From the UHGV virus genome UHGV-0038496: a stretch of DNA of 64,000 nt, one strand, 5' to 3'. Below are positions 5,217 through 64,000 of the stretch, piece by piece. Origin of the DNA: a virus. The position numbers and the translations under genes were made by a program. The stretch's first letter is position 1. Every line of letters begins with the position of its first letter. The notes under the pieces are model-generated. The model was not told the origin of the DNA and did not search any database. It saw nothing but the letters and a program-made list of their open reading frames with translations.

Positions 5217-6021
5217 TTAAATCATCCTCTTATACATAGAGGGTGAAACAATCTTCGGAATAACACATGGCATCGCAACTTCCTCTTTTTCAAGGTAGTT
5301 GATTGCAGAAGCAATGGAGTCGGCCCAGTCATCTTTACGGCTAAAGGTTGACCGTTCGCCGTTGAATTTCTCCAGCTCTGTCAAAAATGCTTCCAGTGTA
5401 TCAGGGTCGAAACTTGACCTGACAAGCCGAACCATACCCTGTTGGGCAAGGTTGGCAAACGGTGAGAAACGGGTGAGTTTTGATTTGTTAGACGGCATTG
5501 GGTCTTCTTCCACCCTGAAACCTCCAGCAAGGAGTTTGCGGGATGAAGTAAGAAACTCACTCTTACCTGCCTGACCGGGGTCCACAGAGAAGACAATCAC
5601 ACAATCTTCACCATCAAACTCTGCCTGTTTCCTGATAATAACATCGCGTTCACCAGCTTTCTTGCAGAACTTACCGCTCAAGCCTGTGGAATACCTGCCA
5701 TCATCTACGTTTTCAGGACAATAGTCACCAGAGATGTAGTAGTAACCATCGCTATCCTTGCTGACTTTGATACTGGCTGTATAGTCGGGGAATTTGTTGC
5801 CAGAGGTACGTTCTGTACCAGCTTTATCCCACGCTCTTACAGAAACTGCTCCTAGGGGGACATGATCCGCATCTTTCAAGAATGTGCGACTGAAATAGTT
5901 TGCGCCTTCCGGTTTAGCGAACCAGTTACCATAGAGAAGTTGTGCTTTTTCCAGTTCTGGCAGACCTTCTAGGAATGCAAGATATTCTGGGTTATCACGC
6001 AAGCAGATAGGGTTATCGTGT
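5217..6021 (-). CDS. terL: terminase large subunit, exon 3 (C-terminal nuclease domain)
   Basis: Frame contains LLYGNWF-type terminase C-terminal motif; upstream boundary set where conserved intron 3' core ends (approximate). Confidence 0.55.
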
Positions 6022-7009
6022 CCTGGTGTTCAGGGCCGGACGCAACTCCGACCCCCGTTGGTTCCATCCACCGCATCCATGCTCGGCTGCATGTTACCAT
6101 GCAGAGCAGACTATATCACGATCCTGTTTCTCACAGGACCCTTCGCTTTTCGAGCACCATCAGCTTGTGCCCTACTCCCTTTCGGGATAGTCGTTGAACT
6201 ACAATTACCAATCATAATTGTTTGAAATGTAAGTATAAGTTTTCCTTTCCTTGATACTTTTCACTGTACGGTGAGAAACCCCCCACAATCTTGCCACCGC
6301 ACCAACGGATAAGCCTTTTTGTAAATCTTCGCAGATACCAATCACCTTGTGCTCACTTATTCTGTTAGCTGAAGGTATTTCCCTAAAGTGAAACTCCGCA
6401 GAGATATCTGGGTATACTGATCCATTCTTTATACCACTTACAAGGGTTTGATTGACACCGAACATCTGACAGATATCTTTTACCCTTGCACCTTGCTCTA
6501 ATAGCCTGCATATTTCAAGGGCAGTGGCATCATCCAAATACCTGTATTTATTTACATAATCTTTTTTAAGTCCAGTTTCATGGGCGTGGTGTGTGTTTTC
6601 CTCTGGGGTTGTCCACTCAAGGTTCCATGCGGCGTTATTCAACTTATTACCGTCCAAGTGATTTACTTGGGTTTTCACGCTAGGATTATCATTATCAACA
6701 AAAACCTCAGCAACAACTCTGTGAACAAGCACTTGGAACTTTTTGCCGTCCTCACACAGGGAAACCACAGCATAGCCTGTCTTTTTATGCGTAACAGGTT
6801 GAAGGAATTTATTAGAATACAAACTATAAATTCTGCCATCATATGTCACGCAATAGTGTGGGTAACCTAAAAATCCTAAATTCTTCATTTCAAACACTCC
6901 CTACTACAGTTTCGGAAGAATAATTATAGCTGCTGATTATCTGAAAGTCAATCAGATTTTCCAGCAATTAACGAAGTTATTCGACGTGCATTACTGCACG
7001 AAGCCACTA
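6022..7009 (-). mobile_element. group I intron A in terL (contains HNH homing endonuclease gene)
   Basis: Separates two in-frame terL fragments; RNA sense has AACGACUAUCCC and GAUAUAGUCUG (S-element-like) plus CUGCAUGG..ACAUGCAG hairpin; core near-identical to nrdD introns; 5' end approximate. Confidence 0.55.
6205..6897 (-). CDS. HNH homing endonuclease (intron-encoded)
   Basis: 230 aa; HRVVAEVFV...NHLDGNKLNN...NLEW HNH motif; lies inside terL intron A. Confidence 0.7.
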   Translation of the reverse strand: MFEMKNLGFLGYPHYCVTYDGRIYSLYSNKFLQPVTHKKTGYAVVSLCEDGKKFQVLVHRVVAEVFVDNDNPSVKTQVNHLDGNKLNNAAWNLEWTTPEENTHHAHETGLKKDYVNKYRYLDDATALEICRLLEQGARVKDICQMFGVNQTLVSGIKNGSVYPDISAEFHFREIPSANRISEHKVIGICEDLQKGLSVGAVARLWGVSHRTVKSIKERKTYTYISNNYDW

Positions 7010-7333
7010 CAGATTAATGGTTGCACCAATAAAGGCGATAGAGAGGGGTTTTGGAACTATCTCAACACCTTTACCGTTAACATACGTGTACTTCTCGATC
7101 AACTCTTCTGGCGTATCGCCGAAGATAAATTCCCCATCCCTACGGATGAAATAACGCTTAACGCCACACTTACTTTCATCGGGGTAGCCTTCGTCATCAA
7201 GCCACCAACGAACAAGTTTGGCTAAATAATGTTCAGAATCGGGGTTACAGCTGATCACCATTCGCGAAGAGTATTTTGATTTCGACCTCATACGGGAAAT
7301 CAGGTAGTCGATTTGCTCCCATTCGAACTGAGT
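7010..7333 (-). CDS. terL: terminase large subunit, exon 2 (boundaries approximate)
   Basis: Frame encodes ...MVISCNPDSEHY... terminase-like segment flanked by intron-like sequence on both sides; true splice donor probably within 7010-7080. Confidence 0.45.
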
Positions 7334-7966
7334 CGTTTGTGTTCAGGCAAGGTCGCTAATCTTGCCCCGCCACCATGTGGCAGCTGCATGTCTCCATGCA
7401 GACCAGACTATATCTTATAAGCGGTAACAACCGCCTATCCTCCCGTTTCGGCAGTCTTAAAAGACTGTGGGTTTCCCCAGCCGCTTGGCCCTAACGCCCG
7501 TAAGCGATAGTCGTTGAGCACACATCCTATCAGGATGCTTCGCTGCGGATTATCTAAATCAACACACTATTACCATACCTTCGGTCTTTCTCCAAAGCCA
7601 ATATTATGTTACCATAATAGATTGGTGGTGTCAATAGTAAAGATTTCCCCGCAATTAGGGAGGTTTTACGAGAGCTACCAACTAACCCTCGTCAAAGCAT
7701 ATTAAAGTATATTCCACTTTTGTCCCGCCGGATCGCTACTCCGACGCGGTGTGCTAAGACACCCGCCACATATTACCATGTGGAACAGACTATCTCTTCC
7801 ATCCTTGGCGTGCCGTTTGGATCACCAATCGCTTGTGATTCTACTCCCCTACACTCATCGGGGATAGTCGTTACACTCGGTTTCAATTAATCCTTTAACC
7901 GTAGCTCGGTATTGTCCTTTTGTCAAGGAGTTTCACCGAATTAGGCACGAAGGGCAGGTTTGTTTA
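7334..7966 (-). mobile_element. group I intron B in terL (ORF-less, duplicated core; possibly two tandem introns)
   Basis: Two copies of the AACGACUAUC(C/G)C ... (A/G)AUAUAGUCUG ... hairpin ... CCUGAACAC core in RNA sense; no credible ORF; boundaries by analogy with nrdD intron 2. Confidence 0.45.
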
Positions 7967-9079
7967 CCCTTGATGATTCAGCTTATCTTGGACGTATTCC
8001 ATGTGGCAGTACTTGATTACCGCACCATCCCTTTTCTTATTCCACTTACCTGTCTTTGCATCGTAATATGGAAAAGTAAACTTATGATCTTTCTCCCTAA
8101 ATTTTGGCCTCATATATTCAGGAAGATCCAGATACACACTTAGTGCTTTAGGCCACAGACCGCCTTCACCTTCCAGTTGTGGGGTTGTCCTACGGAACAT
8201 CACCACAGAGGTGTTTGGGTCATCTATCATCTTTAGTGGGAGAAGCTGCAAAAGAAAGGATTTACCACTGTTGCCTGTCACTGCAATGCAGTTTTCCAGT
8301 CTGGTGATAAAATAGCCTGTTGTGGTAGCAAAACAATATTTGTAACCATCTTCCGGCTCAAACTCTTCGAACGTTGCATCGTTATTAAGAGCAATCGTAC
8401 CTGCACGTTCGTTGGAGAACACAACTTTGTAACCCTTTTCGAAGAAGATCTGTGCATTGAATCCCAGAGATGATCCGAGGTATTGCAAGAAATCAGCCTG
8501 TTCTTTCGTTGGAACAACGTAGACATGCGAGTCATTACCGTTCAGGTAAATCTCATACCAGATCTGCAACAACTGGCGACGATCACAGTTATACCATTCA
8601 TCTGTGAATTTGTAATATCTTGCCTTTTCTTTCAGCTCTTCGTCAGAAATATCAAGGCCAGTACCACCCATGTTCACAAACGTGGTTTGCATACGCATTG
8701 CCAACTCATCGTTAGCATGTTGTTCGGCCACTTCACTGAAACAAAGTGTACCGTAATCTGTTCCGTCTTCTGGTACATACAGGACTGTGTGCTCGTCAGA
8801 CAATTCCTGACAAATACCATCCTGCACAACCCTGGTCAATTTATCGCATTCCAGCTTAACAAACTCTTCAGGCTGGATAAACATAGCCTTACCAGTTTCT
8901 TTATCAAACTGGAGGATATCTTGACCATCCCAGTCTGAGATTCTGATCCAACCGTTAGGTGTCATCACCTCATGTCGCATTGACAAACAACCCGCTGCCC
9001 CACCAATGATCAGGAAGTCGGCATCATTTTCCAGAATCATTTGTTGTTTACGGGAGCATGGGCCATACATTTTAGCCAT
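7967..9079 (-). CDS. terL: terminase large subunit, exon 1 (ATPase N-terminus, contains intein)
   Basis: N-terminus ...FLIIGGAAG then, after 240 aa insert, SGKSFLLQ: restored Walker A GGAAGSGKS; ATG at 9079 overlaps o-spanin stop. Confidence 0.6.
8270..8989 (-). mobile_element. intein inserted in terL Walker A (P-loop)
   Basis: 240 aa in-frame insert starting with Cys (CLSMRHEVMTPNGWIRISD, intein block-A-like) and ending ...IAVTGN before Ser+1; removal restores Walker A. Confidence 0.6.
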
Positions 9080-28926: not shown

Positions 28927-29439
28927 GTGTTAAACGTAATCAAGAGAGATCTGACAACAGAACCTTTTGATGCTCGTAAAATAGTGGTAGCTGCACAAAA
29001 AGCCCTGGAGGCATCCGGGGCTGATGTGACAAGAGCATTTCATGCTGCACATTTTATTGCTGACGAGATTGTTTCTGAATTGGAGAGCTATGCTCAACAT
29101 GAAGAGGAGATAACAGTACCTGAAATCCACACAATGGTGGAAAACGCTTTGATGCGTTATGGTTATCTGGATGCTGCCCGTGCTTATATTGAGTACCGTA
29201 AAACCCGTGATAACAACCGTGAAGCTGCTGGTAAACTGCTGGCAGATGTTAATGGTTTCCTTGACCAATCCTGTGATGAATTCACTAAGGAGAATGCTAA
29301 CAAACCCACCAAGCATGTGCACACTCATCGTGATTTACTGGCCGGGATTCTAAGTAAGCACTTAGCTGTTACACAGATCCTACCGGAACATATTTCGAAG
29401 GCACATACTGATGGTTTTATACATGTCCATGAACAACAT
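28927..29439 (+). CDS. nrdD: anaerobic ribonucleoside-triphosphate reductase, exon 1 (ATP-cone); 3' boundary approximate
   Basis: N-terminus VIKRDLTTEPFDARKIVVA is ATP-cone-like; frame ends in intron-like sequence. Confidence 0.55.
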
Positions 29440-30452
29440 CGTGGCCTTACTGAGTGATCAGTATTGAATAACTCTGTTAACGCTAATTGCAAAGCGGTGT
29501 GCAGCGAAAAGCTGTGCTAACGGTTCAGAGGCAGGTGACTGCATTATGAGTAAGGGAGCCTAAACCCTTTGGACTAGGGGCAAGGTAATACCGTGCTAAG
29601 AATAGTGGCATCCTCTTAACTAGGAGGATGGTATGAATTTAGAATATGTTGATTGTGGGGATTACACAATCTATGAAGACGGTTATGTGGTTGACCATAT
29701 AGATGGCTATTGTGGTTGGGGGTACAGAAACGGTGGATACAGAGAAGCCTATGTTTACATAGGTGGAGAAAAGAGAAGAATGAAAGTTCACAGGTTAGTA
29801 GCTATGGCTTTTATTCCAAACCCTCTGAATTTGCCAGTTGTTAATCATCTGGATGGGAATAAGATGAACAACCACAGAGACAATCTTGAGTGGTGCACAC
29901 AAGGTCGTAACAATATACATGCAATTGAGACAGGATTAAGAAACGTCGCTGAATCGAACAGTAAGAGGTGGGATGACTCTGCATTCAGAGAAAGAACGGC
30001 TTCCAGAATAAGTGCGACACAAAAAGAACGCGGGACAACCGCTGGTAGGAATAATCCTCGTTTCAAGTATGAGATTGTTAAAGACGGAGATGTGTACACG
30101 GCTCCAGAGTTCTTCAATAAATTCAAAGATGTTTATGGTTTAAAACATTTGGAAAATCTGATAGGTAATTGTTGTGCATACCTCAAGCACAACTTGAAAA
30201 GAAAATTCTGGCTTAAAGTTGGAGCAGAGCCACGCTACGCCAAGAAAGAGTAAAACCTTCGGATGCCACTATTTATGTGTATCGACTATCCCGTAAGGGA
30301 GTAGGTGGGAGATGCTCCCCATCCAAAAGCAGAGGATCTCTAACTAGAGATCGTGATATAGTCATTGCCTACAGAAATGTAGGAGAATCAAGGATTTAGA
30401 TTACATAATTAGTCCATTAACGAACTGTTGTCTTGTAAATTATCCAGACATG
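29440..30452 (+). mobile_element. group I intron 1 in nrdD (HNH endonuclease-containing)
   Basis: Interrupts nrdD frame; contains ATCGACTATCCCGTAAGGGAGTAGG and GATATAGTC elements shared with terL introns; 3' end ...CAGACATG fits phase of exon 2. Confidence 0.5.
29633..30253 (+). CDS. HNH homing endonuclease (intron-encoded)
   Basis: HRLVAMAFIPNP...NHLDGNKMNN...NLEW; AGGAGG RBS. Confidence 0.65.
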   Translation: MNLEYVDCGDYTIYEDGYVVDHIDGYCGWGYRNGGYREAYVYIGGEKRRMKVHRLVAMAFIPNPLNLPVVNHLDGNKMNNHRDNLEWCTQGRNNIHAIETGLRNVAESNSKRWDDSAFRERTASRISATQKERGTTAGRNNPRFKYEIVKDGDVYTAPEFFNKFKDVYGLKHLENLIGNCCAYLKHNLKRKFWLKVGAEPRYAKKE

Positions 30453-31055
30453 CTGGAGCATGGATTTACAATAGGTAACGCAACCATAGGAACACCAAAT
30501 TCTATTAATGTAGCTGCAACAGTTCTTTCACAAATTTCAGCTGCTGTTTCTGGTGGGCAGTATGGTGGGCAGACGTACAGTCACATAGACCGCTACCTTG
30601 TCCCCTATGTAGAAAAAACACATAATAAAAACTTATCTTTCTGTAAAAAACACGGTTTGCCGGAAAGCGTTGCTGATGAAATGACAGAGAAAGATGTATA
30701 TGATAGTATGCAATGTTTTCTCTATCAAATCAACACCTTAACCAGCACCAACGGGCAAACTCCGTTTTTGACTATCAGTTTAGGTCTTGATACTTCTAAA
30801 TTTGGGAGGATGATCACTAAAAACTATCTTATGGTTCATAAAGGTGGCATTGGTGAAGACCATATAACCCCAGTATTCCCTAAAGTCTTGTTCTTCCTTG
30901 AAGAAGGGGTGAACATGAACCCAGGTGACCCAAATTACGATTTGAAACGCCTGGCTTTGGAATGCTCAGCAGAGCGAATTTACCCAGACTTCGTTTCTGT
31001 GCCTTTGAACAGAAAAGTGACAGGATCTACTGCTGGCGATGTTACAAGCATGGGT
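30453..31055 (+). CDS. nrdD: anaerobic ribonucleoside-triphosphate reductase, exon 2
   Basis: Frame continues reductase body; ends with U before splice donor. Confidence 0.55.
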
Positions 31056-31833
31056 AAACTACTATTGCTCATGTAAAACCTATCTAAACGGGGGAACTCT
31101 CTACGGAGAAAATCCCGTGCTAAACGTAACAGAACTCCCGGAGAAAAGGAGTCCTGAAATGAGAAAACAAATTCGTGATTTTGAAGGGTATGAAATTGAC
31201 GAGATGGGAAATGTTTATTGCACCCGCTACGAAAAGGAAAGAATCATCCATCCGTGGGAAGAAATAAACACAGGCTACCTTCTTGTCAGGATACGCAAGA
31301 ACAAGAAAACTGTTTGCCTGAGGGTTCACAGACTTGTTGCTGAAGCGTTTTTACCGAATCCAGACAATTTGCCCTATGTTAAGCATAAGGGTGACAACAA
31401 GAAAGATAACAGCGTATACAATCTTGAGTGGGGTGCTTGCCCAGATAATACCCAGGAAGGTTACGACAACAACTGTTATACTTTTTACACAAGGTGTCAC
31501 GGTGTGAAAGCTACCAACAAACTGACTGGTGAAGTTTTCCACTTTAAGAGTCTGAGATGCTGTGCTGATACTTTAGGGGTGGATAGAAAAAGAATATCTG
31601 CTATCCTGAAGCGTGGAGCACCTAATAACTATGATTACGAGTTCTGTTACGAAATGCCGAACGACTAACCGTGATGAATGTAGCGGTGTAGGGTGCAAGC
31701 CTATGGCACTCCAAAAGATAGGCACACGAAAGTGTGAAGATATAGTCTGATCTGCATGGTGACATGCAGCCGAGCATGGATGCGGTGGATGGAACCAACG
31801 GGGGTAGTGTTGCGAGCTACTCTGAACACAATG
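31056..31833 (+). mobile_element. group I intron 2 in nrdD (HNH endonuclease-containing)
   Basis: Exon 2 ends ...ATGGGT, intron ends ...CACAATG (omega-G), exon 3 begins TGT giving continuous ...SMG/CRSF...; AAGATATAGTCTG and CTGCATGG..ACATGCAG hairpin near 3' end. Confidence 0.6.
31159..31668 (+). CDS. HNH homing endonuclease (intron-encoded)
   Basis: Start at MRKQIRDFEGYEIDEMGNVY after AAAGGAG; VHRLVAEAFLPNP...NLEWG. Confidence 0.65.
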   Translation: MRKQIRDFEGYEIDEMGNVYCTRYEKERIIHPWEEINTGYLLVRIRKNKKTVCLRVHRLVAEAFLPNPDNLPYVKHKGDNKKDNSVYNLEWGACPDNTQEGYDNNCYTFYTRCHGVKATNKLTGEVFHFKSLRCCADTLGVDRKRISAILKRGAPNNYDYEFCYEMPND

Positions 31834-32808
31834 TGTAGAAGTTTCTTGAGTAAATACAACGATCCTGTAACAGGTGAAGAGAAATATCTCGGTCGTTTCA
31901 ACTTAGGTGTGGTAAGCCTGAACCTACCTATGATTGCAGCTCGTTCCAAAGCTGAACAGGTAGATTTCTTCAAACTGCTTGACGAGTATCTTGAACTGGC
32001 GTATGATGCTCATATGGTACGTGTGAACCGTTTGAAAGGCACAAAAGCTGGACAGAACCCGATCATGTGGTGTGAAGGTGTTCTGGCTCGTCTTGATCCT
32101 AATGAGGAGATTGACAAACTGTTCTACGATGGCTATGCTTCTATAAGCATCGGCTATATTGGTGTTTATGAAACATGCCAGATCCTTGGCAGAGAAGGCG
32201 ACAAAAACCTTGCTCTGGGTATCCTCCAGCACATGAAGGATAAATGTGTTGAGTTCAAAGAACGCAGCAGATTAGGTTTTAGCCTGTACGGCACACCAAG
32301 TGAAAATCTCTGCTATAAAGCGGCTACTTGCTTAGACAGGGCGTATCCTGGAGTTCTGGAGCACGAAAGGGAATATCTGACTAATTCGTTTCATCAGCCA
32401 GTCTGGATCAAGAGCAGTCCTTTCGACAAGTGGGACTATGAAACCGGATTCGCAGCGATCTCCAACGGAGGGTTCATAGGTTACGTTGAACTACCTAATT
32501 TACGTAACAATCTCGATGCTTTGGAAAAAATTGTTGATTACGGGTACACCCATTTGCCATATTTCGGCATCAACATGCCTGTTGACCAATGCTTCAAATG
32601 TGGCTTCCGTGGGGAATTTTCTGCCACTGCAAAAGGGTTCTGCTGCCCTGAGTGTGGTAACCATGACGAAAGTAGCATCAGTGTGATCCGAAGAGTATCA
32701 GGCTATCTGTCTGCACCTAATGCTCGCCCATTCAATCGAGGGAAACAATCGGAGGTGTTAGAAAGGGTTAAACATGTCGGCAACGTAGATTGTTGTAGTA
32801 TCTGTTAA
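31834..32808 (+). CDS. nrdD: anaerobic ribonucleoside-triphosphate reductase, exon 3 (C-terminal zinc ribbon)
   Basis: C-terminal CFKCG...CCPECG zinc ribbon as in class III reductases. Confidence 0.6.
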   Translation, partial: CRSFLSKYNDPVTGEEKYLGRFNLGVVSLNLPMIAARSKAEQVDFFKLLDEYLELAYDAHMVRVNRLKGTKAGQNPIMWCEGVLARLDPNEEIDKLFYDGYASISIGYIGVYETCQILGREGDKNLALGILQHMKDKCVEFKERSRLGFSLYGTPSENLCYKAATCLDRAYPGVLEHEREYLTNSFHQPVWIKSSPFDKWDYETGFAAISNGGFIGYVELPNLRNNLDALEKIVDYGYTHLPYFGINMPVDQCFKCGFRGEFSATAKGFCCPECGNHDESSISVIRRVSGYLSAPNARPFNRGKQSEVLERVKHVGNVDCCSIC

Positions 32809-32862: not shown

Positions 32863-33372
32863 ATGAATGGAAGATGTTCTATACCTGTTCCTAAAGGTAG
32901 TAACGGAGAAATCTTATGGGATGAAATTTTCATAGCCAAAGATAAAGGTTTAGTGTGGAAATACGACAGAAGGATGGTTAAAGCTGGCGAGAAGGCAGGT
33001 ACAAAACAGAAAAATGGCTACTTTGCTGTCTATGTTTGTGGGAAACAGTATTATGTTCACCGAATAGTTTGGGAAATGCATAATGGTCCTATACCGAAAG
33101 GTAAAATGATTGACCATGTGGATCACGACAGAGAAAACAATGATATAAGCAATCTTAGGCTTGTTGATGATAAAGGCAATACGAGAAATGTATCCTTGAG
33201 AGCAGACAACAAGTGTGGTTGCCCTGGTGTGTGCTTCGACAACACAAGGCAGAAATGGCTTGTCACTATTTGCGGGAAATACATAGGTAGGTTTGATACC
33301 TTGTTTGAAGCAATTTGCGCCAGAAAATCTAGAAACGCAGAGCACGGCTTCCACAAGAACCACGGGAGGTGA
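32863..33372 (+). CDS. HNH-AP2 homing endonuclease (free-standing between nrdD and nrdG)
   Basis: VHRIVWEMHNGPIP...IDHVDHDRENNDISNL HNH motif; AP2-like C-terminus. Confidence 0.6.
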   Translation: MNGRCSIPVPKGSNGEILWDEIFIAKDKGLVWKYDRRMVKAGEKAGTKQKNGYFAVYVCGKQYYVHRIVWEMHNGPIPKGKMIDHVDHDRENNDISNLRLVDDKGNTRNVSLRADNKCGCPGVCFDNTRQKWLVTICGKYIGRFDTLFEAICARKSRNAEHGFHKNHGR

Positions 33373-33615: not shown

Positions 33616-34101
33616 ATGAACATAGTGGGGTATGACTCTACCTCTTATACAGAGGGTCCAGGTATCAGGGTTGCTGTGTGGGTGTCTGGTTGCGTACATC
33701 ACTGCAAGGGGTGTTTTAACGCTCATTATTTCGATCCGAAGGTAGGTACACCATTTTCAGAAAAACATCTTGACAAAATACTTCAAGATCTGGATAATAG
33801 CTACATCGACGGAATCAGTTTCCTCGGTGGTGAACCTCTTGCACCTTACAACGTGGAAGGCGTTCTTTCAGTAATGCGAGAAATCCGCAAAAAATTTGGT
33901 GACAAGAAGACAATTTTAGTGTATACTGGCTACGTATTGGAAGAACTACCGATTTGGGTACGTGCCCAGGTAGAATGCCTTGCTGACATGATTATCGACG
34001 GCAGATATGAGAAAGACCTGCCAACAAAGAAACCTTTCCGTGGTTCTGATAATCAGTGCTTTTATGTTAAGAAAGACGGCATCTGGCACAAGGTTGATTG
34101 A
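33616..34101 (+). CDS. nrdG: anaerobic ribonucleotide reductase activating protein (radical SAM)
   Basis: CVHHCKGC = Cx3Cx2C radical-SAM cluster motif near N-terminus; next to nrdD. Confidence 0.65.
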   Translation: MNIVGYDSTSYTEGPGIRVAVWVSGCVHHCKGCFNAHYFDPKVGTPFSEKHLDKILQDLDNSYIDGISFLGGEPLAPYNVEGVLSVMREIRKKFGDKKTILVYTGYVLEELPIWVRAQVECLADMIIDGRYEKDLPTKKPFRGSDNQCFYVKKDGIWHKVD

Positions 34102-59440: not shown

Positions 59441-59515
59441 GATTTGTCACTCCTTTTAAATTGTTTACTGCTTTCGATTATCAGTATACTTGTTTTTTCT
59501 GATTTGTCAACCTTT

Positions 59516-59994: not shown

Positions 59995-60300
59995 TTTATT
60001 TTCCTCGTTTTCTTTCAGCTTCCCCCGGTTTATCCGGTCCTTGTTGCCTCCCTGCATCCTTTCCTTTCAACTTTATTTTACTGCTTTGTGTTACCTTGTC
60101 AACCTTTTTTACTTCTTTCTAGTTTTAGGGCTTTTCGGCTCCCTCGGTCCTTCGGTTAGCTATGCTTCAAGGCTTTTCCTTTACCCTTCTTTTCCCGCTC
60201 CCGGAACTTTCCTTTCTGTTCCCTTTCTTCTCCTTTCGACTATAGAATACCAAACCGGGGGGCCGTGTCAATACCTTTTTCACAACTTTCTTAAAAATTT

Positions 60301-62558: not shown

Positions 62559-62650
62559 AATATTTTCCTCTTTGTGATTTACTAATTACTTCTTTCAGTT
62601 TTAAGTTTACTTATTTTTGCTACCGTGTCAACTAATTTTTTGAATTTATT

Positions 62651-63236: not shown

Positions 63237-63315
63237 GATCCTTTCTCCTGTGTTTTATTAATCTCGTTTACTGCTTTCATTGTTAAGTATACTTGTTTTT
63301 TATCGCCTGTCAACT

Positions 63316-63426
63316 CTATTTTTCATCTTTTTTAAAGAAATCGATCAGGCCTTTGATAACTGCCGCCAGGTGCAAGCCCAGCAAAAAGAAGGCATAGCCT
63401 ACAATGATTGCCGCGATAATGTTCAT
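63316..63426 (-). CDS. hypothetical small membrane peptide
   Basis: 36 aa ORF after CAGGAGG. Confidence 0.3.
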   Translation of the reverse strand: MNIIAAIIVGYAFFLLGLHLAAVIKGLIDFFKKDEK

Positions 63427-63802: not shown

Positions 63803-63830
63803 ATACTACATCTTTATTCTACCGTGTCAA
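63803..63830 (-). promoter_or_regulatory. sigma70-like promoter
   Basis: Minus strand TTGACA-16-TAGTAT; -35 overlaps stop codon of upstream partial gene. Confidence 0.45.
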
Positions 63831-64000
63831 CATTTTTTAAAGAATTTTTCTACCGTGATATCTTTCCCAGCAGGTTTAGCCACTTTCAGAATTTTATCAT
63901 GCACCGGGCGCCCGAAAGAATAAGCGCCATACACAGTAAGCCAATAATCCCCGTTAGGCTGTACTATTACCGCTGCATATGGTACGCCTTTCTCGTTATC
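63827..64000 (-). CDS. hypothetical protein, 5' end beyond window
   Basis: Open frame from window edge to TGA at 63827-63829; not in track because partial. Confidence 0.35.
   Translation of the reverse strand, partial: DNEKGVPYAAVIVQPNGDYWLTVYGAYSFGRPVHDKILKVAKPAGKDITVEKFFKKC

Follow-up and report, generated by a model that had tools for sequence, protein, structure and literature searches.

A private tail module shared by two group I introns resident in terL and nrdD of an rV5-related phage

The 64,000-nucleotide (nt) stretch of virus genome UHGV-0038496 analysed here (the window, meaning the whole stretch) belongs to a phage related to rV5 (Vequintavirinae) and carries terL and nrdD on opposite strands, each interrupted by group I introns (Table 1). 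Both genes are about 79% identical at the nucleotide level to those of rV5-like genomes, and no record covered the full length of either the terL or the nrdD query. The segment at 6022–6200 is the 3' ribozyme half of the third terL intron, comprising P6', P7, P7.1, P7.2, P3', P8, P7', P9, P9.1, P9.2 and the terminal G. An initial reading of the letters alone (the sequence-only reading) had noticed nearly identical intron tails in the two genes. The recent part of this likeness is a 35- to 44-nt P9.1 module transferred between terL intron 3 and nrdD intron 2, and short patch gene conversion between co-resident paralogous introns, rather than the spread of a whole intron, probably explains it.

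Table 1. Coordinates of the genes, introns and shared blocks in the window (a slash in a peptide marks the intron site; aa, amino acids; ORF, open reading frame)
Feature	Position	Strand	Description
terL	9079..5217	minus	3 group I introns + intein-like insert
terL intron 1	7965..7717	minus	249 nt, without ORF, site NHQG/LEYT
terL exon 2	7716..7685	minus	32 nt, Walker B motif (LEYTLICFDEG)
terL intron 2 ("B" in the sequence-only reading)	7684..7334	minus	351 nt, without ORF, site CFDEG/TQFEW
terL intron 3 ("A" in the sequence-only reading)	7016..6022	minus	995 nt, T4-type group I, site FIGATI/HDNP
HNH homing-endonuclease gene, 230 aa	6897..6205	minus	in P6 loop of terL intron 3; Pfam HNH_3 + HTH
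Shared block, arm 1 (terL intron 3)	6051..6117	minus	6117-6086, family-wide P7'/P9; 6085-6051, private P9.1-region module CGAGCAUGGAUGCGGUGGAUGGAACCAACGGGGGU
nrdD	28927..32808	plus	2 group I introns
nrdD intron 1	29431..30392	plus	962 nt, site HVH/DLD; HNH gene 29633-30253 in P6 loop
nrdD intron 2	31056..31833	plus	778 nt, T4-type group I, site SMG/CRSF
HNH gene of nrdD intron 2, 169 aa	31159..31668	plus	Pfam HNH_3 + I-HmuI NUMOD-like, both weak
Shared block, arm 2 (nrdD intron 2)	31739..31805	plus	same 67-nt inverted repeat

One intron family in two genes

The Rfam model of group I introns (RF00028, gathering score 50 bits) recognized terL intron 2 above its gathering score (80.3 bits, E = 8e-19). 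Scores below it, though still significant, were obtained for terL intron 1 (44.7 bits, E = 3.8e-8), nrdD intron 2 (34 bits) and terL intron 3 (28.6 bits, E = 0.0025; here the ORF splits the intron), and nrdD intron 1 gave no match to this model. The low scores of the ORF-bearing introns are due to inserts of 0.5–0.7 kb, which split them. A custom covariance model was therefore derived from the P7-to-P9 alignment of 11 introns, all from outside the window, namely those of T4 td, nrdB and nrdD, of rV5-like phages, Avunavirus and phi92-like phages, and of the metagenome contig L019. The family alignment covers P7, P7.1, P7.2, P8 and P9, and compensatory changes occur in 14 of its 26 consensus pairs. 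The tails of the relatives fold into three hairpins (P9, P9.1 and P9.2) with differing stem sequences. A MAFFT alignment of the tails placed P9.1 and P9.2 out of structural register; it was left out of the pair counting, and each tail was folded separately.

On the 64-kb window, the custom model gave exactly five matches, one per intron, scoring 45.3–93.7 bits with E-values from 1e-19 to 1e-8. The highest score was that of nrdD intron 2 (93.7 bits), followed by terL intron 3 (84.2 bits, 6195-6086), terL intron 1 (74.9 bits) and the remaining match of the five (53.9 bits), with nrdD intron 1 the lowest (45.3 bits, E = 1.4e-8, at 30281-30385). The introns of the window are thus all members of the T4-type phage family (td/nrdB/nrdD) and IA2-like in subgroup, and the ORFs of the three ORF-bearing introns all contain Pfam HNH_3 domains. 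The proposal that one intron family occupies both terL and nrdD is thus borne out by a model built without the introns of the window. Its count of "four or five" introns resolves to five, three of which lie in terL; terL intron 1 had not been listed separately.

All five introns are preceded by U and end in G. Guide sequences could be assigned by reading: GCUCAU for AUGGGU in nrdD intron 2, GCCCUU for AAGGGU in terL intron 1, GCUCUCGU for ACGAGGGU in terL intron 2, and GUGG for CCAU in both terL intron 3 and nrdD intron 1. After splicing, TerL can be aligned to the product of the uninterrupted terL of MiataMamis with no gap at any of the three junctions. Contig L019, from a relative with 89% identity, is without terL introns 1 and 3 and reads NHQGLEYT and GATIHDNP at these sites, as predicted. 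The spliced NrdD has 713 aa and no internal stops and is colinear with the NrdD proteins of T4 and phiWec193, both uninterrupted at both sites; the site of nrdD intron 1 is also uninterrupted in the metagenome contig L016 (GFMHVH/DLDYIV). Splicing of the terL and nrdD introns would probably still be functional. An alternative junction for terL intron 3 (INL/HDNP) and an alternative 3' splice site at 6031 were rejected, as they add two to five residues relative to the intron-free alleles.

The 32-nt terL micro-exon lies between two ORF-less introns, and a correct TerL requires both splicing events together with inclusion of this exon. Exon skipping has been described for a multi-intron phage terL (PMC11878797). 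The stop codons of two HNH genes fall inside ribozyme helices, at 31666-31668 in the P7 5' strand of nrdD intron 2 and at 6205-6207 in P6' of terL intron 3, and translation of the endonucleases must therefore compete with folding of the ribozyme core.

Generic and private parts of the shared tail

The strongest long-range repeat in the window joins terL intron 3 and nrdD intron 2. It is an inverted repeat of 67 nt with 97% identity, whose arms (6051-6117 and 31739-31805) lie 25.6 kb apart. From GAUAUAGUC to the terminal G, the entire 3' segment matches at 84 of 96 positions between the two introns. It includes a perfect run of 44 nt (6094..6051 = 31762..31805), and the local alignment score is 132, whereas shuffled sequences reach 26 at most. 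The two mismatches of the 67-nt repeat are located upstream, in J7/9 and in the P9 loop.

The repeat is made up of two parts of different reach. Its first 32 nt (GAUAUAGUCUGNUCUGCAUGGNNACAUGCAGC) are generic and are matched by 676 phage records, including the T4 td, nrdB and nrdD introns. The 35 nt that follow are private to the lineage of this phage. Nothing similar to this module was found in about 120 other family tails, and a 20-mer taken from it had no exact matches in IMG/VR. Among metagenome contigs, the same 20-mer had three matches, two of them chance occurrences in unrelated DNA and one relevant, in the nrdD intron 2 of contig L016.

The other introns share less with this pair. The sequence-only reading had included terL intron 2 among the nearly identical tails, and this part of the claim did not hold: what terL intron 2 shares with the pair is a 34-nt block around GAUAUAGUCUG..CUGCAUGGNNACAUGCAGC and the terminal CUGAACAC. 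Its tail matches those of the two partners at 64/99 and 65/98 positions, falling to 35/67 (52%) beyond the generic block, and it is nearer to the tail of the T4 td intron (65/81). The motif CGACUAUCCCG(A/U)AAGGGAGUAGG, noted as common to nrdD intron 1 and terL intron 3, is present in both. It is generic, since CGACUAUCCC...GGGAGUAGG also occurs in T4 td and T4 nrdD and the pattern is found in at least 120 IMG/VR contigs. The two introns are about 71% identical over 91 nt, mostly in generic motifs. Limitation of the likeness to short consensus elements, which the sequence-only reading had named as refuting its proposal, applies to terL intron 2 and to the nrdD intron 1 motif and does not apply to terL intron 3 and nrdD intron 2.

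A further likeness was seen within terL. The P9.2 hairpins of terL intron 1 (7738-7756, GUCGGAGUAGCGAUCCGGC) and terL intron 3 (6038-6055, GUCGGAGUUGCGUCCGGC) have the stem UCGGA/UCCGG in common, and the P9.2 stems of their orthologues differ (CUCAGU/ACUGAG in intron 1 of 18-1-2, GGUGG/CCACC in intron 3 of rV5). This common stem may represent a second small conversion, although with only about six independent bases it is too short to call. The tail of nrdD intron 1 is short, with P9 only and neither P9.1 nor P9.2.

Orthology of the introns and a probable gene conversion

The sequence-only reading had suggested that a single intron lineage spread recently within the genome, with different HNH genes as cargo. 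In such a history, an intron would have copied itself between the two genes, through ectopic homing or reverse splicing, and acquired a different HNH gene later. The long repeat with its perfect run and the membership of all five introns in one family speak for it, as does nrdD intron 1, for which no orthologous intron was found in 50,697 phage records and which is absent in L016, T4 and phiWec193. This intron seems to be a gain specific to the lineage, at an nrdD site with no earlier report, which points to at least one such event; its resemblance to terL intron 3, however, lies mostly in generic motifs. Whole-intron copying is nonetheless very unlikely, being contradicted by the orthologues at the same sites and by the identities of endonucleases and cores. 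Orthologues of both terL intron 3 and nrdD intron 2 occupy the very same sites in rV5-like and phi92-like phages, with 82–90% nucleotide identity, and the annotation of rV5 itself gives terL as a join of three pieces with an HNH gene. The endonuclease of terL intron 3 is 84% identical at the amino acid level to gp066, its counterpart in the terL intron of rV5, and that of nrdD intron 2 is 94% identical to its orthologue in SYGMH1 and 89% to that in nepoznato. The two endonucleases of the window are 31–46% identical to each other, in the HNH domain only.

The same opposition is found within the ribozyme. The P7–P8 core is 54–60% identical between the paralogues and 73–89% identical to orthologues, whereas the tail is 84% identical between the paralogues and 49–64% identical to orthologues. 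Measured segment by segment against rV5-like phages, terL intron 3 shows 70–77% identity in the flanking exons, 82% in the 5' part with the endonuclease gene, 78–81% in the 3' core, 97% in P9 and 53–56% in the tail; the corresponding values for nrdD intron 2 are 68–76%, 90%, 87%, 97% and 59%. The core thus groups with the orthologues and the tail with its companion in the same genome, which is the signature of a conversion patch and not of a newly copied intron: the tract is closer between paralogues than to orthologues, and its flanks are orthologous. Judged by these comparisons, terL intron 3 and nrdD intron 2 are old, separately resident elements.

The remaining introns extend this picture of the sites. 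Orthologues of terL intron 2 are present in rV5, phiWec193, A13b and L019, and terL intron 1 has an orthologue in the Avunavirus phages 18-1-2/TH18; no nrdD was found within the 45 kb of TH18 that were examined. Across the relatives, at least four intron sites are used in terL and at least four in nrdD (T4 after about residue 278, phiWec193 after TSVNG, and the two sites of the window). In contig L019 (ERZ27303200 k141_662370, 5260-5674), terL intron 2 is shorter (233 nt), and an extra family intron, missing in the window, is located near the terL C-terminus (after ...SRKDD).

In the proposed mechanism, non-crossover recombination would replace the P9.1 hairpin region with the lineage-specific 35-nt module. 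Homology would be supplied upstream by the invariant P7'/P9 block and downstream by the conserved P9.2 loop or the CUGAACA end. The position of the two repeat mismatches, in J7/9 and the P9 loop, indicates that the tract begins after the P9 loop, and it would end ahead of the P9.2 stem, whose sequence is not the same in the two introns (UCGGA/UCCGG versus GUAG/CUAC). A crossover between the copies, which are inverted, would invert 25.6 kb and fuse the nrdD 5' exons to the terL 3' exon; only non-crossover patches should survive. The private module looks derived from an rV5-type P9.1 (AGCACGUAAUGGUGCGG) into which 14 nt were inserted, in part as a duplicate of the bases just before them. Its origin was probably in one of the copies, with later transfer to the other. 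What the comparisons show directly is the family membership, the splice junctions, the orthology of cores and endonuclease genes and the discordant tail; the recombination mechanism and its direction are inferred from these.

An assembly that switched between introns through the shared P9 block could produce a similar tail, and the genome does contain three to four copies of a near-identical block of at least 32 nt. Such an artefact is extremely improbable. The return to the terL-specific P9.2 and exon needs a second switch point, where only about six to eight bases are shared, and the nrdD copy is independently confirmed in L016. In the window, terL keeps its frame and a correct junction.

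The direction from nrdD intron 2 to terL intron 3 is more likely, being favoured at roughly twice the likelihood of the reverse. In L016, nrdD intron 2 is found at 95–97% identity, with 62 of 62 tail positions identical, beside an nrdD exon that is only 79% identical. The 89%-identical relative L019 has no terL intron 3. A near-identical intron beside so divergent an exon implies that this variant of nrdD intron 2, tail included, moves horizontally. Furthermore, both introns are more conserved (82–90%) than the exons (68–77%), which indicates homing between phages.

This active movement also bears on where the exchange took place. The tails could have been exchanged in another phage before homing into this one, or both could stem from a third, unsampled intron encountered in co-infection; since L019 is without terL intron 3, that intron may be a recent arrival. 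An exchange elsewhere is unlikely, given that IMG/VR and the phage records yielded no further carrier of the private module and that the sole other copy in the metagenome scan is in an nrdD intron 2, and it would still need an intron-to-intron conversion somewhere.

Exchange of modules seems to be common in the T4-type intron family. In phi92-like phages, terL intron 3 has exactly the P9.1 of the T4 nrdB intron (AGUUCAUAAGAGAACG), and rV5-like phages have in terL intron 3 a P9.1 of the nrdD-intron-2 type. A same-genome comparison of rV5-like pairs (GUAAAG versus GUAAUG in the P9.1 loop) could draw on A13b, which alone has both introns; SYGMH1, with an intron-free terL, and phiWec193, without nrdD intron 2, each lack one partner and give no such pair.

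Some P9.1 hairpins, GUUCAUAAGAGAAC among them, are found again and again in unrelated members of the family, which suggests functional constraint, and selection might therefore keep the tails identical after convergence on the same trans factor or tertiary contact. This is highly improbable as the source of the present identity: convergence would not yield 44 consecutive identical bases including the 14-nt insertion, and the orthologues work with quite different P9.1 sequences. A related idea is that the P9.1–P9.2 domain is an exchangeable module actively kept identical among co-resident introns, that is, a selected rather than a neutral patch. It is doubtful at best. If it were true, identical tails might, for instance, make terL and nrdD splicing depend on a common trans factor or on a shared activation step of the 3' domain, providing a selected regulatory link between DNA packaging and the supply of deoxynucleoside triphosphates.

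Several points weigh against patch conversion in this genome. The private P9.1 region gives no convincing hairpin, unlike the three clean hairpins of all relatives. Other contigs with several family introns (L082/L083, L106 and L090) show no tail homogenization, so that the event would be sporadic and not the rule. The conversion could predate the arrival of the intron and have occurred in another genome: no close relative carrying terL intron 3, and hence its ancestral, pre-conversion tail, was found, and scans with the private block gave only the nrdD copy. The proposed direction rests on two short metagenome contigs (L016 and L019). As P9.1 types recur widely, the sharing of the rV5 type could reflect ancestry or selection. 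Finally, the terL copy of the module is without independent confirmation, misassembly nonetheless being unlikely.

Other elements of the window and comparison with known systems

TerL carries another insertion in its Walker A motif (P-loop). This is an in-frame insert of 240 aa (8270-8989, minus strand; GGAAG/C...VTGN/SGKS) with intein-type ends, namely Cys1, a terminal Asn and Ser at +1, and it is missing from the terL genes of MiataMamis and SYGMH1. No Pfam, NCBIfam or PDB sequence match was obtained, and only two close homologues were found among 5.8 billion proteins. A single-sequence AlphaFold model reached a pLDDT of 36.5, too poor for a fold search. The insert looks like an intein and is regarded as a candidate by its ends and position.

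A free-standing HNH_3 endonuclease gene (32863-33372, 169 aa, E = 2e-20) lies directly 3' of nrdD and ahead of nrdG (33616-34101), and is counted as the fourth HNH gene in a 5-kb region. Elsewhere in the window, a motif of about 30–50 nt (..TACTTGTTTTTT..TGTCAAC..) is present in five copies over 4.4 kb (59463-59515, 60079-60107, 62584-62632, 63266-63318 and 63807-63835) and may be a phage promoter family or a set of regulatory sites.

The exchange proposed here would be a clean natural example of co-resident homologous group I introns swapping peripheral RNA domains via conserved elements, one that happened without wrecking either essential gene. It also illustrates that local sequence identity can mimic recent spread even though the elements are old residents. 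Selfish elements are unusually dense at this locus, where two essential genes contain five introns, four HNH genes and one intein-like insert. It lends itself well to studies of how introns and inteins come and go, although it opens no new class of biology.

The closest known system is that of the T4 td, nrdB and nrdD (sunY) introns, the three of which were reportedly recognized as homologous by Shub and colleagues in PNAS in 1988. Their homology is established (Sandegren and Sjoberg 2004, as cited in PMC2993671). The introns of the window are like them in sequence and structure family, with a 32-nt P7'/P9 block that is 92–95% identical, and have in common with them the P7–P7.1 motif, the three-hairpin tail and the CUGAACAYAAUG-type end. 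T4 likewise has several homologous introns in nucleotide-metabolism genes of one genome. In the window, however, it is terL and nrdD that are interrupted, and only HNH endonucleases occur, versus GIY-YIG ones in T4 td and nrdD. The introns of nrdD lie at other sites than in T4, and one intron pair has a private module in common that extends far past the family consensus. The T4 nrdD intron, at its other site, has the same guide GCUCAU as nrdD intron 2 of the window (31056-31110), with a similar 5' exon hexamer (AUGAGU versus AUGGGU). Relocation of one intron lineage between guide-matching sites fits this common guide.

In rV5, terL is split into three segments, with one intron carrying a homing endonuclease, as described in the section "Introns in terminase" of Kropinski et al. 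2013 (PMC3606486). These introns occupy the same sites as terL introns 2 and 3 of the window and are their orthologues. Compared with rV5, to which it is about 79% identical, the phage of the window has a third terL intron, the intein-like insert, a second nrdD intron and an altered tail. In other phage lineages, with introns of other clades, the Twort orf142 and the Pol and TerL genes of Bastillevirinae contain two to three group I introns per gene, terL included, with very small internal exons and HNH or GIY-YIG cargo (PMC11878797, in the sections on these genes). Those sections do not mention tail sharing between genes.

T4-type introns with HNH cargo in terL and nrdD of rV5-like phages have thus been described or annotated before, and the twist here would be a natural domain swap from intron to intron. 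The nearest parallel comes from the laboratory, where Bryk and Belfort, in Nature in 1990, are said to have found that T4 introns recombine via short conserved elements to give hybrid introns, which is also the mechanism proposed for the window. That shuffling arose under laboratory selection, by crossovers with genome rearrangement, whereas the exchange in the window would be natural and fixed, a non-crossover patch between inverted copies 25.6 kb apart.

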